A stretch of DNA of 64,000 nt from Candidatus Borrarchaeum weybense. Its GTDB lineage: Archaea; Asgardarchaeota; Sifarchaeia; Borrarchaeales; Borrarchaeaceae. Where the stretch lies: the NCBI GenBank assembly GCA_019057385.1, contig JAHQJS010000004.1, forward strand, positions 544,001-608,000. The letters are read 5' to 3'. The position numbers were made by a program, and so were the translations under genes. The notes beneath the pieces are model-generated. The model saw only the letters and a list, made by a program, of their open reading frames with translations, had not been told where the DNA came from and ran no database searches. This document shows, one piece after another, positions 38,005-47,877 of the stretch. Every line of letters begins with the position of its first letter. The stretch's first letter is position 1.

Positions 38005-39312
38005 TCATTTCGAGTAATCGTAGAATCCTCTTCCAGTTTTTCGCCCTAATCGACCAGCTCGTACCATCTTTCGAAGCAGTGGGCACGCTTTATATTTTGG
38101 ATCTCCGAATTCTTCATAAAGATAGTCAAGAATCGCTAGTACGACATCTAATCCTATAAAGTCAGCGAGTGTGAGAGGACCCATTGGATGATTCAATCCA
38201 AGTTTCATCGCTGTATCGATTCCTTCGGCGCTAGAAACTCCCTCTTGAAAAGCAATTATAGCCTCATTGATCATGGGAGTTAGTATTCTATTGACGACGA
38301 ACCCTGGTGCTTCATTAACAAGAACTACAGTCTTATCGAGTTTTTTCACGAATGTTTGCACAGTTTCATATGTTTCATCTGAAGTGCTAAATCCTCGAAT
38401 TAATTCGACTAACTTCATTATAGGCGCTGGGTTGAAGAAGTGTACACCAACTACATTAGCTGGTCTTTTTGTTGCAGAAGCTATCTCTGTTATGCTCAAT
38501 GAAGACGTATTGCTGCCGATAATCGCTTCAGGTTTACATATATTGTCAAGATCGCTAAAGATCTTCTTCTTAAGATCCATGTTTTCTGGTGCAGCTTCAA
38601 TGACGATATCTGCATCTTTTACCGCATTTAAATCTAATGAGCCTTCAATTCTTCCCATTATTGAATCTGCTTGTACTTGTGAAATTTTCCCTTTATCAGC
38701 ACTTCTTGTAACGAATTTCTTGATAGTATTCAGGCCTTTTTGAAGAAACTCATCTGCAACATCTGTCACGACAACATTAAACCCATTCTCTGCCGCAACT
38801 TGGGCAATTCCCGCTCCCATAGTTCCTGCACCAATAACAGCGACCTTCTTTATAACAAAATCTTCCTCAACCTCTTTTTCAACTTCTTCGAGCCCTGTTC
38901 CAACCTCAAAGGCTAAGGCCATCCCAGATTTCGTGGCCATAAATCTTGCGGTCACAGATTTACCAATTTCGACAGTTTCTGGTTTCGATTGCTCTATTCC
39001 GAGAAGAACTGCACTAATTGATGCCCCCTCATCTAATTTTACGACACAATAAGCGTAAGGATGCTTCATATCATAGCCTTTTTGACAATATTCTGAAGTA
39101 CCTACATAAATATTCGTGAATGATTCAACTTTTCCTTTCCCAGCAAGTTCTTGCCATTTGGTATCGGTACTTTGGCACTTTGAACATATTTGTCGTGGCG
39201 GTAAATCAATATTACCACAATTCTTACACTTTGTCCCCATGAGTTTCTTTTCATTCAAAAACTCGTGATAAGATGCCATTGAAATTTCTTTTTCAGCAGT
39301 CATTTTTTCCAC
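38005..39312 (-). CDS. hbd: DUF35 (Zn-ribbon/OB-fold) fused to 3-hydroxybutyryl/3-hydroxyacyl-CoA dehydrogenase
   Basis: N-terminal KCKNCG..PPR..CSKC plus OB fold; then GAGTMG, SNTSS, HFFNP, PGFVVNR, HPMGP, GRKTGRGFY. Confidence 0.92.
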   Translation of the reverse strand: MEKMTAEKEISMASYHEFLNEKKLMGTKCKNCGNIDLPPRQICSKCQSTDTKWQELAGKGKVESFTNIYVGTSEYCQKGYDMKHPYAYCVVKLDEGASISAVLLGIEQSKPETVEIGKSVTARFMATKSGMALAFEVGTGLEEVEKEVEEDFVIKKVAVIGAGTMGAGIAQVAAENGFNVVVTDVADEFLQKGLNTIKKFVTRSADKGKISQVQADSIMGRIEGSLDLNAVKDADIVIEAAPENMDLKKKIFSDLDNICKPEAIIGSNTSSLSITEIASATKRPANVVGVHFFNPAPIMKLVELIRGFSTSDETYETVQTFVKKLDKTVVLVNEAPGFVVNRILTPMINEAIIAFQEGVSSAEGIDTAMKLGLNHPMGPLTLADFIGLDVVLAILDYLYEEFGDPKYKACPLLRKMVRAGRLGRKTGRGFYDYSK

Positions 39313-39500
39313 CTACCTTCGATAAATATGAACATATAAGTGTATACATTCATCGCCCAACTACTTAATATGAAGATTTTCATTAGTGAGTTAATGGTAA
39401 AGTGACTAGAATTACTTCTATTTTACTTGAGTTTAAAAAGTATTGGCCCGATTCGATCGACAGACGGTTTACAAGTTAATAGTTAATACAAAACAAAGTT

Positions 39501-39576
39501 TGAGGGGAAAAGGGGGCTACCCTCTGTCTCTCGAACCATTTGCGCTTTCTAGATTCGAGATCATCCTTATCCCTCA
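39501..39576 (-). promoter_or_regulatory. Eukaryote-type SECIS element in the 3' UTR of the Sec-peroxiredoxin
   Basis: Minus strand reads UGAGGGAUAAGG-AUGA-UCUCGAAUC-UAGAAAGCGCAAAU-GGUUCGAGA-GA-CAGAGGGUAGCCC-CCUUUUCCCCUCA. Spacing is AUGA-N12-AA-N18-GA; it begins 19 nt after the stop. Confidence 0.88.
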
Positions 39577-39595
39577 GATATTATTGGTTATCACT

Positions 39596-40159
39596 TTAAA
39601 GTTTTCCTGCTAGGTCTATACCGGGTGTTAAACCAGGTTCTCCTTCCTTCCATCCGGCAGGAGCAACTTGTCCGGTTTTTTTATGGAATTGTATGGCCTT
39701 GAGAACTCGGATAACTTCGTCCGTATTGCGTGCTATGGGTTCATTGTATATACTGAGCGCTTGTATCATTCCCTCTGGATCGATCCAGAAGATTGCACGA
39801 AGAGCAAATTTTCTGTCCTCGTCGTAAACCCCGTATAGTCTGCTTATTTCACCGTCTGGGTCAGCTAGCATCGGATAGGTAACTTTCTTGACTGTCGGAG
39901 AAACATCGGTCCAGACCTTATGTGAAAACACTGTATCCATGCTGATTGAAAGCACTTCTGCATTGAGTTCTTTAATTTCATTGTATTGATCGGCTACAGC
40001 GCCTAATTCGGTGGGTCAGATGAAGGTAAAATCGGCAGGATAGAACCAGAGAAGAACCCACTTACCGAGGTAGTCCGCGAGGCTAACTTCTTTGATTTCA
40101 TTGTCAATGTATGCTTGCGTCTTAAAGTCAGGTGCTGGCTTTCCAACAATTGCCTCCAT
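39596..40159 (-). CDS. Selenocysteine-containing AhpC/Prx1-type peroxiredoxin (PrxU-like), 187 aa, Sec48
   Basis: ATG 40159 follows AGGTGA; the sequence reads [15 protein letters not shown] with TGA at 40016-40018 in place of the peroxidatic Cys; the frame continues into the 119-aa ORF of the track; a SECIS lies downstream. Confidence 0.93.
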
Positions 40160-40303
40160 TTTTTTCACCTTTTTGGCTGAAACCGTATCTATATAGGCTT
40201 TAAGTCTAATTGTATGCTCTAAAAAAGCAAATTCTTATTTTTAAAGAGCAAACAGACCCCCGCACTGGTCTGACTTTTGAAGCACTTTTAATACAATTTC
40301 TGC

Positions 40304-40343
40304 CATAATGAAAATGATTATCAATATCATTAAATATATAAAA
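40304..40343 (-). promoter_or_regulatory. Overlapping Fur-box-like operators next to a TATA box facing the peroxiredoxin
   Basis: 40304-40322 CATAATGAAAATGATTATC and 40310-40328 GAAAATGATTATCAATATC each match GATAATGATAATCATTATC at 16/19; minus-strand TTTTATATA at 40335-40343. Confidence 0.7.
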
Positions 40344-40650
40344 TTAACGGATTCAATTCTAAAAGGCCCATCCATCTAATTCAGAAATTTTTCAAAGACG
40401 AGTAATCATCATAAAGAGGCTTAAAAAGCATAGAATTATGCACATAAAGGCAGTTCAAATGGCTCCCGAAAGCACAAGTGGTCTAGCGCACATTTTTCTA
40501 AGAGTGCAACAGTGCTCAATATTGAAGACAACTGGTAACTCGATGAGGGCTTACGGTTCGATAATTTCTGATAGCATAAAAAAAACGAAAATTCACTCGT
40601 AAACCGCTACCATACATTCTTAAGAGTAATAGAGTTTATTATCTTTCAGA

Positions 40651-41127
40651 GTGAGGAAAATGCAATTGCAGAAAAGAAAAAAGGATTTAAATCTCATAAT
40701 ATCTGAGTCTCACTTAAAAGAAAAACTTAAGGAAAGAAATCTACGTTTAACGAAAGCACGAAAAATTATCCTTGAAGAAGTAAAAAAGGCACGGTCTCAT
40801 CCAAGTGCGTATGATATTTGTGTAAAAGTTAGAGAGCGGTTTCCGAACATCGGAATTGCTACGGTCTATCGTAATTTGAAGCTTTTTAAAGAATTAGGCC
40901 TTATTTTTGAGTTAGAATATACTGGGGAACAAGGTAGGTTCGATAGTGGTTCTCCAGATCATTCTCATTTTATTTGTGAGAGGTGTGGAGAGGTTTTCGA
41001 CCTTGAAGATCCCATTGATAAAACACTTGAGGTAACATTTGAAAAACGTATTGGTGCAAAATTTACACACCATAGAGTAGAATTCTATGGACTTTGCAAA
41101 GTATGCAGGTCTACTAAGCGCGCATAG
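40651..41127 (+). CDS. Fur-family regulator, PerR-like
   Basis: HPSA, ATVYRNL, RFD...HSHFICERC...D, CKVC motifs; the exact start is uncertain. Confidence 0.9.
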   Translation: MRKMQLQKRKKDLNLIISESHLKEKLKERNLRLTKARKIILEEVKKARSHPSAYDICVKVRERFPNIGIATVYRNLKLFKELGLIFELEYTGEQGRFDSGSPDHSHFICERCGEVFDLEDPIDKTLEVTFEKRIGAKFTHHRVEFYGLCKVCRSTKRA

Positions 41128-41194
41128 ACATTGATTTTTCCAATTTTTTCTCTTTAAGATATACTAAATTCTTTCATTACAAATAACTAAGCAA

Positions 41195-41228
41195 GAAAGC
41201 ACCACCGCTTTAGCGTGAGGTAGTTCAC
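41195..41228 (+). mobile_element. IS200/IS605 right-end remnant
   Basis: GAAAGCACCACCGCTTTAGCGTGAGGTAGTTCAC, the classic GAAGC..CGCTTTAGCG..TAGTTCAC end; it overlaps the thiolase stop codon. Confidence 0.6.
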
Positions 41229-42475
41229 CTTTTATAGATGTGAACAACTGCAGTGCTTCCGGATCCTCCTACATTATGTGTCAATCCAATTTCAACGTTT
41301 GATACCTGACGTTCCCCAGCTTCATCACGTAATTGCTTAAATATCTCAACAGTTTGTGCAACTCCGCTAGCACCAACCGGATGTCCCTTACTCTTGAGCC
41401 CACCTGATGTATTGATAGGCAGATCGCCGTCTAAGGCGGTTCTTCCTTCCAAAGTTACTCTTCCTCCAGTTCCTTTCTCAAAAAAGCCCAGATCTTCTAT
41501 TGCCAGAATCTCAGCGATAGTGAAACAATCGTGTACTTCAGCAATTTTGATATCCTGAGGTCCAAGACCAGCCATTTGATAAGCCTGTTGACTTGCTACC
41601 CTAGCAGCTCTCAGAGAGGTCATAGTATCTCGATCATCTAAAGAAAATGCATCACTACCCTGACCACTACCTATTACCCAGATAGGTGTATCTGTATACT
41701 TTTTAGCTACCTCTTCAGATGCTAAAAAGACACATGCCGCCCCGTCTGTGATCAATGAGCAATCAAACAATCGTAATGGATATGCAATCATAGGATTTGA
41801 ACTACTTTTCAGAAATTCATATTCATCAGCCCAACTTGGAACAGTTTGACCCTTTTGTTTTGCTCTTTCAATGCGTTTGTTCATGATGTCCGTGATGGTG
41901 TTTTGCATTTGCGCCTTTGGATTAAGCGCACCGTTTGCATGGTTCTTAATTGATACTGCCATTAATTGTTCCTCTGTTGTACCGAACTTTGCCATATGTG
42001 CTGTGGCCATAGTTGCATATAGACCAGGGAACGTAGCTCCAGCTAAAACTTCTGAGTGCGTGTCGCTTGCTGCTGCTAAGGCATCTGTCACTTCAGTCGT
42101 CGTCAAGTTTGTCATCTTTTCTGTGCCACCGATACATACAATATCGTATTCACCAGAGGCAATAGCTAGAACACCAAGTCTTAAGGCTACACCACTACTG
42201 GCACATGCATCTTCGATCCTCATTGCAGCCTTTGGAGTGAGTCCAACTAGATCCGCCATAAGCGGAGCAGTATGCGTCTGTTTTTCGAAAAGGTCAGATG
42301 AATAATTGCCTAAAAAGAGGGCTTCAACGTCCTTCACATCAATGTCATTATCCACTGATTTTTTTGAGTCCAAAAAAGCTTCTACCCAAAGTTCTCGGTT
42401 CGTCTTTCTATCAAATCTACCAAATTTACTCATTCCTGCTCCAATAACTGCTACATTTCGAAAAAGTTTTCCCAT
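41225..42475 (-). CDS. Archaeal/SCP2-type thiolase
   Basis: EDACASSG, DCSLITDGA, HDCF, GHPVGASG, HNVGG motifs. Confidence 0.93.
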   Translation of the reverse strand: MGKLFRNVAVIGAGMSKFGRFDRKTNRELWVEAFLDSKKSVDNDIDVKDVEALFLGNYSSDLFEKQTHTAPLMADLVGLTPKAAMRIEDACASSGVALRLGVLAIASGEYDIVCIGGTEKMTNLTTTEVTDALAAASDTHSEVLAGATFPGLYATMATAHMAKFGTTEEQLMAVSIKNHANGALNPKAQMQNTITDIMNKRIERAKQKGQTVPSWADEYEFLKSSSNPMIAYPLRLFDCSLITDGAACVFLASEEVAKKYTDTPIWVIGSGQGSDAFSLDDRDTMTSLRAARVASQQAYQMAGLGPQDIKIAEVHDCFTIAEILAIEDLGFFEKGTGGRVTLEGRTALDGDLPINTSGGLKSKGHPVGASGVAQTVEIFKQLRDEAGERQVSNVEIGLTHNVGGSGSTAVVHIYKR

Positions 42476-47397: not shown

Positions 47398-47877
47398 TTA
47401 AGCCAAATTCTCTAAAGATTTTTCGATTTCTTCGTAAGGGGGCTCAATTTTTGGATTCTCTGATACCCATGTGTATCTTACAATCCCTTCTTTGTCAATA
47501 ACAAAGACGGCACGCATTGCAACTGTATATCCTTTGAGCCCTGCAAAGTCTTTAGATTCAAGACCATAAAGTCGTGTTACTTCTCTATTATAATCATTTA
47601 GCAAAGGAAATTCGAGTAAGTTTGCCCCTGCAAAAGCCCTGTTCGTGAAGGGATCATTTACACTTATTCCGAGAACTTGAGCGTTTAGATCGTTAAATCT
47701 TGATAGAGAATCTTGAAAGGTACAGAGAGATTTTTGACAGGTTGACGTAAATGCTCCTGGGTAAAAGTATAAAACAACATTTTTGCCACGAAAACCACTT
47801 AATCTTTGAGGTTTTAACTCGGTGTCGGGTAGAGTGAAATCAGGAGCTTCCTGATCAACTTTTATTTTAGGATTCAT
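47398..47877 (-). CDS. Cys-type peroxiredoxin (BCP/AhpE-like)
   Basis: [16 protein letters not shown] motif; RAVFVID. Confidence 0.9.

Follow-up and report, generated by a model that had tools for sequence, protein, structure and literature searches.

We describe here a gene that very likely encodes a working selenoperoxiredoxin of a Sifarchaeia-type Asgard archaeon, with its in-frame UGA read through an Asgard-type selenocysteine insertion sequence (SECIS) in the 3' untranslated region (UTR). The gene, called prx below, and its product, called Sec-Prx, come from Candidatus Borrarchaeum weybense (assembly GCA_019057385.1). We analysed a window of 64,000 nt (contig JAHQJS010000004.1, positions 544,001 to 608,000), which is part of a 1.3-Mb contig (genome size 4.2 Mb); coordinates given without a contig name are window positions. 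The initial annotation of the window, made from the sequence alone, had proposed a peroxiredoxin with one selenocysteine (Sec) that is decoded by the Asgard/eukaryote-like system. The Sec machinery of the genome, its set of similar hairpins and a relative from a mangrove metagenome all support this proposal.

The prx frame runs on the reverse strand from an ATG at 40159, preceded by a ribosome-binding motif, to a TAA stop at 39598-39596, with a single interruption by a TGA at 40016-40018. Translated with TGA as Sec, it gives a protein of 187 residues without any cysteine. Plain open reading frame (ORF) calling finds only a head of 50 residues and a tail of 119 residues (39596-39955), and it was this 119-residue fragment that the initial annotation started from. 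The ATG with its ribosome-binding site, the single TGA at the peroxidatic codon and the cysteine-free product with VAP in place of VCP had all been read correctly, as translation and alignment to homologues confirm. The expectation that annotation pipelines would split the gene is true of plain ORF calling, but the gene table of the NCBI contig JAHPYX010000215.1 (GCA_019058535.1) lists a 187-residue product at exactly the prx coordinates.

Sec-Prx contains the Pfam domains AhpC-TSA (3.8e-39) and 1-cysPrx_C (2.1e-7). Its active site, P41-A-D-F-T45-F-I-U48, is the PxxxTxxC motif with Sec for Cys, and R121 aligns with the catalytic arginine of AhpC. Among the 119 nearest full-length homologues, all have a cysteine at position 48 and 118 have one at position 166, where Sec-Prx has an alanine (VAPAGW where the relatives carry VCP). 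The resolving cysteine of the C-terminal VCP, which defines the typical 2-Cys peroxiredoxins, is thus missing. The best match in the PDB is AhpC (4mab, E = 3.5e-51, residues 9-187), and the alignment with the AhpC proteins of Salmonella and E. coli (4mab, 1yep, 4o5r) runs from end to end with E ~1e-51, including a common C-terminus, WKEGE...DL.GK. AhpC itself uses two cysteines and is recycled by AhpF, whereas Sec-Prx has Sec for the peroxidatic and alanine for the resolving cysteine. The window also contains a Cys-type AhpC/TSA peroxiredoxin of 136 residues, 7 kb away at 47452-47859 on the reverse strand (Pfam 7.8e-37), which is 36% identical to Sec-Prx.

Downstream of the stop codon the transcript can form a hairpin with the features of a SECIS core. 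It starts with AUGA at 39564-39561, 31 nt past the TAA, followed by a 9-bp helix (39560-39552 paired with 39537-39529, including one G.U pair), an apical loop of 14 nt that reads UAGAAAG... with the AAA at 39548-39546, and a GA at 39528-39527. The motif spacing is exactly AUGA-N12-AA-N18-GA. In the RNAfold prediction the 9-bp helix is accompanied by a lower stem, which begins 19 nt past the TAA, and by a second small hairpin between this stem and the SECIS core, and the whole forms a three-way junction. The initial annotation had described the 9-bp helix, the apical AAA and the motif spacing 3' of the stop as they are found here; the distance of 19 nt that it gave is that of the lower stem. 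A BLAST search of the 3' UTR against the genome finds no second copy, therefore the SECIS of prx is not a recent duplicate.

The hairpin resembles the eSECIS-like type I or lokiSECIS elements of Asgard archaea (PMC4989117, PMC11227280) in its position in the 3' UTR near the stop, its AUGA_GA core, its 9-bp stem and its unpaired loop adenines. More precisely, it has the 3'-UTR site, the [A/G]UGA_[G/A]A core and the unpaired apical adenines of eSECIS-like type I, with no apical mini-stem. It differs from the lokiSECIS type in that the AUGA lies clear of the stop codon and in the extra small hairpin with its predicted three-way junction. With eukaryotic SECIS elements (Rfam RF00031 etc.) it has in common the AUGA/AA/GA spacing and a kink-turn-like core of tandem G.A pairs, but no Rfam SECIS model matches it at E<=10. 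The label eukaryote-type, used in the initial annotation, is thus justified for the spacing and the core as a resemblance, and no further, as the Rfam SECIS models miss the hairpin. About 65 kb away, the 3' UTR of a PrxL gene has a different arrangement of arms according to a rough comparison.

Related hairpins were sought across the genome with a descriptor that demands, in this order, [AG]UGA, a helix, a loop whose 5' part contains AAA, and either GA or AA; for the matches we inspected the upstream reading frames. With a helix of at least 9 bp, there are 32 sites in 8.4 Mb (both strands), and at least six of them lie directly 3' of other genes interrupted by TGA. The chance of finding such a site within 100 nt of a given stop is ~4e-4. 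The same hairpin type is found behind two VhuD genes, SelD, an AhpF-N-like gene, two HesB-like genes and one gene near SepSecS; in the VhuD, SelD, AhpF-N-like and HesB-like genes each TGA is at the position of a redox cysteine. Both VhuD genes encode a CxxU motif, and their UGA stop overlaps the AUGA of their own hairpin.

The AhpF-N-like and HesB-like genes deserve a closer description. In the designations used below, G000 is the source genome and C1, C4 and so on are its contigs. The AhpF-N-domain-like gene encodes a double-thioredoxin protein with a UPFC site; it lies upstream of the hairpin at G000:C6:507444-507480 (-), and its UGA stop overlaps the AUGA. The HesB-like genes are two small paralogues 5' of the hairpins at G000:C6:502374-502409 (-) and C4:174439-174473 (-), each with a single TGA in frame (GK-U-SKTC in one, SSS-U-SG in the other) and only weakly matched by Pfam Fe-S_biosyn (E ~0.007). 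HesB-like selenoproteins are outside the published Asgard list (PMC11227280).

The source genome has a complete Sec machinery of the archaeal/eukaryotic pathway, consisting of tRNA-Sec, PSTK, SepSecS, SelB/EFSec and SelD. The absence of such machinery would have spoken against a selenoprotein, and a search of the genome finds every component. SepSecS scores 490 bits, SelB/EFSec 286 bits and SelD, which has an in-frame TGA of its own, 250 bits. A PSTK-like gene directly upstream of selB scores 186 bits, below the PSTK cut-off of 290, but is still the best match. The nearest named relatives of SelB are those of Ca. Sifarchaeum (87%) and Ca. Borrarchaeum (84%), which, taken with the presence of a tRNA-Pyl, puts the genome in Sifarchaeia/Borrarchaeales.

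The tRNA-Sec gene (G000:C6:464916-465039, reverse strand, 124 nt with encoded CCA) is built on stems of 9 bp (acceptor), 7 bp (D, with a loop of 4 nt) and 4 bp (T), with CUUCAAA as its anticodon loop and G as the discriminator. Its T loop is interrupted by an intron of ~31 nt, at the same position as in Lokiarchaeota (PMC4989117). Neither Rfam RF01852 nor Aragorn, with or without introns, finds the intron-bearing gene anywhere in the genome, and after removal of the intron in silico Aragorn calls tRNA-SeC(tca). The gene was found by a GC-filtered search for the CUUCAAA anticodon loop; a loose search for the acceptor stem was too noisy. Further copies exist in three related genomes (G004:C84:3198-3346, G001:C68:9359-9475 and G002:C113:2495-2583). 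The neighbours of the resident gene, a HEAT-repeat protein and a polyprenyl synthetase, are both unrelated to the region around prx.

The TGA of prx is also present in independent copies. Contig JAHPYX010000215.1 is 100% identical over 721 nt, and an identical prx is also present on a contig from another sample of the same source study; the TGA is kept in both. A relative is found in a mangrove metagenome, on a contig present in two runs of a different study. It is 94.5% identical to positions 39501-40203 without gaps, and the similarity ends at 39501. No assembly or contig that we compared has TGT or TGC at 40016-40018.

The mangrove gene also keeps the TGA, and it keeps Ala166 by way of a synonymous change from GCT to GCC. 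In total it differs from prx by 17 synonymous and 9 non-synonymous changes, a ratio of the two rates (pN/pS) of 0.15. Downstream of the TGA there are 16 synonymous and 6 non-synonymous changes; from this pattern, the frame past codon 48 is not dead. Changes in the 3' UTR are confined to the apical loop, its closing pair and the vicinity of the stop, while the AUGA, the GA, eight of the nine helix pairs and the lower stem have no change. At positions 39501-39536 and 39543-39577 there are no substitutions at all, compared with 14% at synonymous sites. The one diverged relative available thus keeps the UGA and the hairpin core, under purifying selection, and the retention of TGA, alanine and hairpin core together with the pN/pS of ~0.15 argues for a working selenoprotein rather than a pseudogene.

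Table 1. Features of the prx gene, its 3' UTR and the surrounding insertion, in window coordinates.
Feature	Position	Strand	Basis or remark
Sec-peroxiredoxin coding sequence, AhpC/Prx1 type	39596..40159	-	187 codons and TAA stop; translation with TGA as U
UGA codon 48 at the peroxidatic position, predicted to be read as Sec	40016..40018	-	P41-x3-T45-x2-U48; Arg121 also present
Ala at codon 166, the position of the resolving Cys (VAP for VCP)	39662..39664	-	homologue alignment
GGTG ribosome-binding motif	40166..40169	-	7 nt 5' of the ATG at 40159; direct reading
SECIS core hairpin (AUGA, 9-bp helix, 14-nt loop with AAA, GA)	39527..39564	-	sequence reading, RNAfold, descriptor
Whole 3'-UTR structure (lower stem, SECIS hairpin, second small hairpin)	39501..39576	-	RNAfold -26.8 kcal/mol, z = -2.0
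Lineage-specific insertion of 1.9 kb between thiolase and DUF35-HADH genes	39334..41252		same-genus comparison
Overlapping Fur/PerR-box-like sites	40304..40328		upstream of prx, downstream of TATA-like TTTTATATA
Decayed copy of a tRNA-Sec gene including 5' flank, T-loop intron	40461..40612	+	78-81% identity to C6:464916-465039
Divergent Fur-family regulator, PerR-like	40651..41127	+	Pfam FUR 5e-30
Multi-copy repeat of ~45 nt, immediately past the thiolase stop, at the right end of the insertion	41176..41228		57 BLAST matches in G000, dozens in G001-G004

Sec-containing peroxiredoxins are known from bacteria, for example PrxU of Eubacterium acidaminophilum. A scan of genomes for DFTF[VI]-UGA-PTE gives at least 120 loci, all bacterial among the matches listed. 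The bacterial proteins have the AhpC/Prx1 fold, the PxxxTxxU site and usually no resolving cysteine, all in common with Sec-Prx; among the matches listed, the resolving cysteine is lost in ~80% of 119 bacterial Sec-containing forms, against 1% of the Cys-type homologues. The insertion signals are different. In most of the ten nearest bacterial genes an in-frame SECIS with a stem of 4-6 bp and an AGUU-type loop is found ~14 nt past the UGA, whereas prx has only a 3-bp stem (-5 kcal/mol) 3' of its UGA and carries its signal in the 3' UTR. In bacteria the SECIS hairpin encodes an ELxAVA stretch, and Sec-Prx reads ELGAVA at that place.

The identity of Sec-Prx is at most 55% to the bacterial Sec forms among the matches listed and at most 57% to Cys forms, and apart from its own fragment the protein searches give no orthologue above 57%. 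In 400 genomes of the phylum the pattern F[VI]-UGA-PTE has ten other matches, none of which is a peroxiredoxin, and two scans of JGI metagenome contigs with degenerate patterns have no match. PrxU (NF040737) is the best NCBIfam model with 223.4 bits, followed by AhpC with 214 bits, and this score is below the curated equivalog cut-off of 270. The log-odds of Sec against Cys profiles is -2.9, compared with group means of +264 (Sec) and -240 (Cys), i.e. the protein is equidistant. A careful tree shows a trichotomy with Sec-Prx outside the Cys clade (support 95/90). An earlier, quick tree that placed it with the Sec clade was set aside, as the tree constrained to the Cys clade had the higher likelihood (approximately unbiased (AU) test, p = 0.86). 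The PrxU-type label of the initial annotation agrees with the best model, but the score is under the cut-off, and tree and profile place the protein between the Sec and Cys groups. We rejected one contig labelled as archaeal with a Sec-containing peroxiredoxin (L143): it is probably mis-binned, with 51.5% GC, a bacterial in-frame SECIS and a coverage of 0.77.

The Prx-like protein PrxL of Asgard archaea (UxxC/UxxU; PMC4989117) is, like Sec-Prx, a selenoprotein with a thioredoxin fold and no cysteine outside the redox site. It has a CxxC-type redox box without peroxiredoxin features, whereas Sec-Prx is a true peroxiredoxin with TxxU, the conserved arginine and the AhpC-type C-terminal tail.

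The genomic context is that of an insertion. In three genomes of the same genus (G004, G001 and G002) the thiolase and DUF35-HADH genes are direct neighbours that overlap or are ~7 bp apart, so the segment between them in the window is specific to this lineage; it holds prx with its SECIS, the Fur-box-like sites, a tRNA-Sec relic and a PerR-like gene. Its right edge is marked by a short repeat found many times in these genomes, Table 1. The GC content at third codon positions (GC3) of prx is 0.415, compared with 0.312 +/- 0.034 for the ORFs of the window, i.e. three standard deviations above the mean, while the GC3 of the regulator gene is ordinary.

This regulator is a divergently oriented member of the Fur family. 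PerR models are its best NCBIfam matches with scores below their cut-offs, and the gene is additional to the resident Fur gene at C7:19286-19744, with which it shares 56% identity. Upstream of prx we find three matches to the 19-bp Fur-box consensus with at most three mismatches (two in the best); 0.07 are expected, and none of 100 shuffled sequences reaches three. Between prx and the regulator lies the relic of a tRNA-Sec gene, in which the anticodon arm is exchanged for ~46 unrelated nt and the acceptor and T stems are broken; Aragorn calls no tRNA at 40461-40612. The same region contains a GC-rich hairpin followed by a T-rich stretch (40243-40262), between the Fur-box-like sites and the prx-proximal TATA, and a putative hydrophobic ORF of 44 codons at 40241-40375 (-).

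Several points weigh against a functional selenoprotein. The support for Sec-Prx comes from sequence analysis. The gene is missing from the same-genus genomes and is consequently dispensable. In the region 39300-40300, Rfam models give only chance matches at E<=10 and no SECIS family; the Asgard elements are generally missed by standard SECIS tools (PMC4989117, PMC11227280). The lokiSECIS in the sense of Mariotti 2016 has an 11-nt loop that opens with adenines, whereas in the 14-nt loop of prx three nucleotides precede the AAA. The assignment of the genome's hairpins to the same type comes from a hand-made descriptor, and MAFFT alignments of the elements are structurally wrong. Finally, only one diverged relative is available; it has no compensatory substitution in the hairpin, and two changes weaken the innermost pair.

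Some of these points would fit a pseudogene, in which a TGT or TGC codon of an ordinary Cys-peroxiredoxin mutated to TGA and the hairpin is a coincidental stem-loop or a terminator. A single step is enough for such a mutation, the gene can be lost, and Rfam does not see a SECIS. A dead gene would, however, hardly keep its TGA in a relative that is 5.5% diverged, with a pN/pS of 0.15 and mostly synonymous changes past the TGA, nor would it be expected to have exchanged the resolving cysteine as well, as most bacterial Sec-containing peroxiredoxins have. The hairpin has all the core features of the SECIS set of the genome, at a place where chance would put it very rarely (~4e-4), and its core and stems are essentially unchanged in the mangrove relative (8/9 pairs). 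We regard a pseudogene as extremely improbable. It is also very unlikely that the full-length protein is made in another way, with UGA-48 read as Cys or Trp by near-cognate suppression, or as Sec by means of another element, and with the hairpin at 39527-39564 serving termination or mRNA stability. The T-rich tract after the 3'-UTR structure would suit a terminator, and the link between hairpin and SelB is made by analogy, and homologues of SBP2 have not been found in Asgard archaea (PMC9723677). On the other hand, TGA is an ordinary stop in this genome, e.g. in both VhuD genes, every other recognised Sec gene that we checked has an AUGA...AAA...GA hairpin directly 3' of its stop, and past the UGA of prx the 3-bp stem is all there is of a bacterial-type hairpin.

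A further possibility concerns only the origin of the selenoprotein, namely a recent transfer of a bacterial PrxU-type gene whose in-frame SECIS was exchanged for an Asgard 3'-UTR SECIS. The best NCBIfam model, the loss of the resolving cysteine and the ELxAVA stretch in common with the bacterial proteins, the high GC3, the location inside an insertion and the careful tree, with Sec-Prx outside the Cys clade (95/90), are all in favour of it. Yet by identity Sec-Prx is no closer to the bacterial Sec forms than to the Cys forms, the profile comparison is neutral (-2.9), and the quick tree and the AU test disagree. In addition, the tRNA-Sec relic in the insertion has the T-loop intron of the Asgard type, which points to an archaeon as the immediate donor. 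We consider such a transfer unlikely on balance, though a serious candidate. Somewhat more doubtful, and put forward tentatively, is the idea that the 1.9-kb insertion is a portable selenoprotein module, consisting of a foreign-looking Sec-containing peroxiredoxin with its own SECIS, a PerR-like switch and originally its own tRNA-Sec, which was passed from one Asgard lineage to another and inserted at a site marked by a repeat. If so, the module would carry the first archaeal TxxU selenoperoxiredoxin, and a selenoprotein family that otherwise has a bacterial in-frame SECIS would have been refitted with a 3'-UTR SECIS and spread laterally. Recycling by the Sec-containing AhpF-N-like protein might then give an all-selenium peroxide relay.

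For the working selenoperoxiredoxin that we favour, we infer the insertion of Sec, the catalytic cycle, the reductant and the regulation as follows. The archaeal SelB/EFSec would bring Sec-tRNA(Sec) to UGA-48, and the AUGA...AAA...GA hairpin 31 nt past the stop would direct the insertion, as is supposed for the other selenoprotein genes of the genome. Since the protein has no cysteine, and hence no resolving one, it is most likely a one-Sec enzyme, in which peroxide would oxidise Sec-48 to a selenenic acid. Another protein with a thiol or selenol would then reduce it directly, with a thioredoxin or the Sec-containing AhpF-N-terminal-domain-like protein as candidates. The divergent PerR-like regulator and the Fur-box-like sites probably make the expression of prx dependent on peroxide or metal.

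It is established that Sec-containing peroxiredoxins are common in bacteria and that Asgard archaea have eukaryote-like SECIS elements. A survey from 2024 lists seven Asgard selenoprotein families (SelD, FrhA/VhuU, HdrA, FrhD/VhuD, Prx-like, an AhpF-N homologue and DsbA-like), of which the archaeal Prx-like family is a CxxC-type protein without peroxiredoxin features (PMC11227280). Its supplementary sequences include, under Sifarchaeia_GCA_019057385, VhuD sequences identical to those of the source genome, and none of six Sec-Prx peptides is found in these sequence sets (0/6). A review from 2026 lists Prx (TxxU) without an archaeal mark and describes Sec-containing peroxiredoxins in bacteria only (PMC13188914). 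The combination of such a peroxiredoxin with an Asgard 3'-UTR SECIS is absent from both publications (PMC11227280, PMC13188914), and Sec-Prx is probably the first selenoprotein of an archaeon to be recognised as a true (TxxU) peroxiredoxin.

A true peroxiredoxin would thus join the short list of archaeal selenoprotein families, and one enzyme family would use two unrelated Sec-insertion signals, in-frame in bacteria and in the 3' UTR in this archaeon. The unit of gene and UTR is only ~660 nt long and would be a handy test piece for SECIS function in Asgard archaea without SBP2. The co-inserted regulator and tRNA-Sec relic bear on the spread of the Sec trait and of new selenoproteins. For annotation, it matters that ORF callers split Sec genes and that a tRNA-Sec with a T-loop intron escapes Rfam and Aragorn.

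Some further observations concern Sec and tRNA genes outside the prx region. Two near-identical SECIS-like hairpins (AUGA, 9 bp, GAAAGCAGGG... loop, GA) are located at G000:C8:185740-185783 (+) and C6:513942-513985 (-), each 22 nt past a small ORF, and the two ORFs have a conserved C-terminal peptide in common; no in-frame TGA is assigned to either so far. The source genome also contains a tRNA-Pyl. Six intron-free tRNA genes are clustered at G000:C1:19435-19896, and a search for intron-free tRNAs with Aragorn gives 17, of which 11 are on the 179-kb contig C1. Introns seem to be present in most tRNAs outside C1; a mobile element could explain the cluster, as could contamination, for which the estimate in this genome is 7%. 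Full-length SelB/EFSec homologues with 41-43% identity are present in many metagenome-assembled genomes of Bathyarchaeota/Bathyarchaeia (loci L208-L234), which suggests, from sequence similarity, that the use of Sec extends beyond the lineages named in the Asgard papers cited here.

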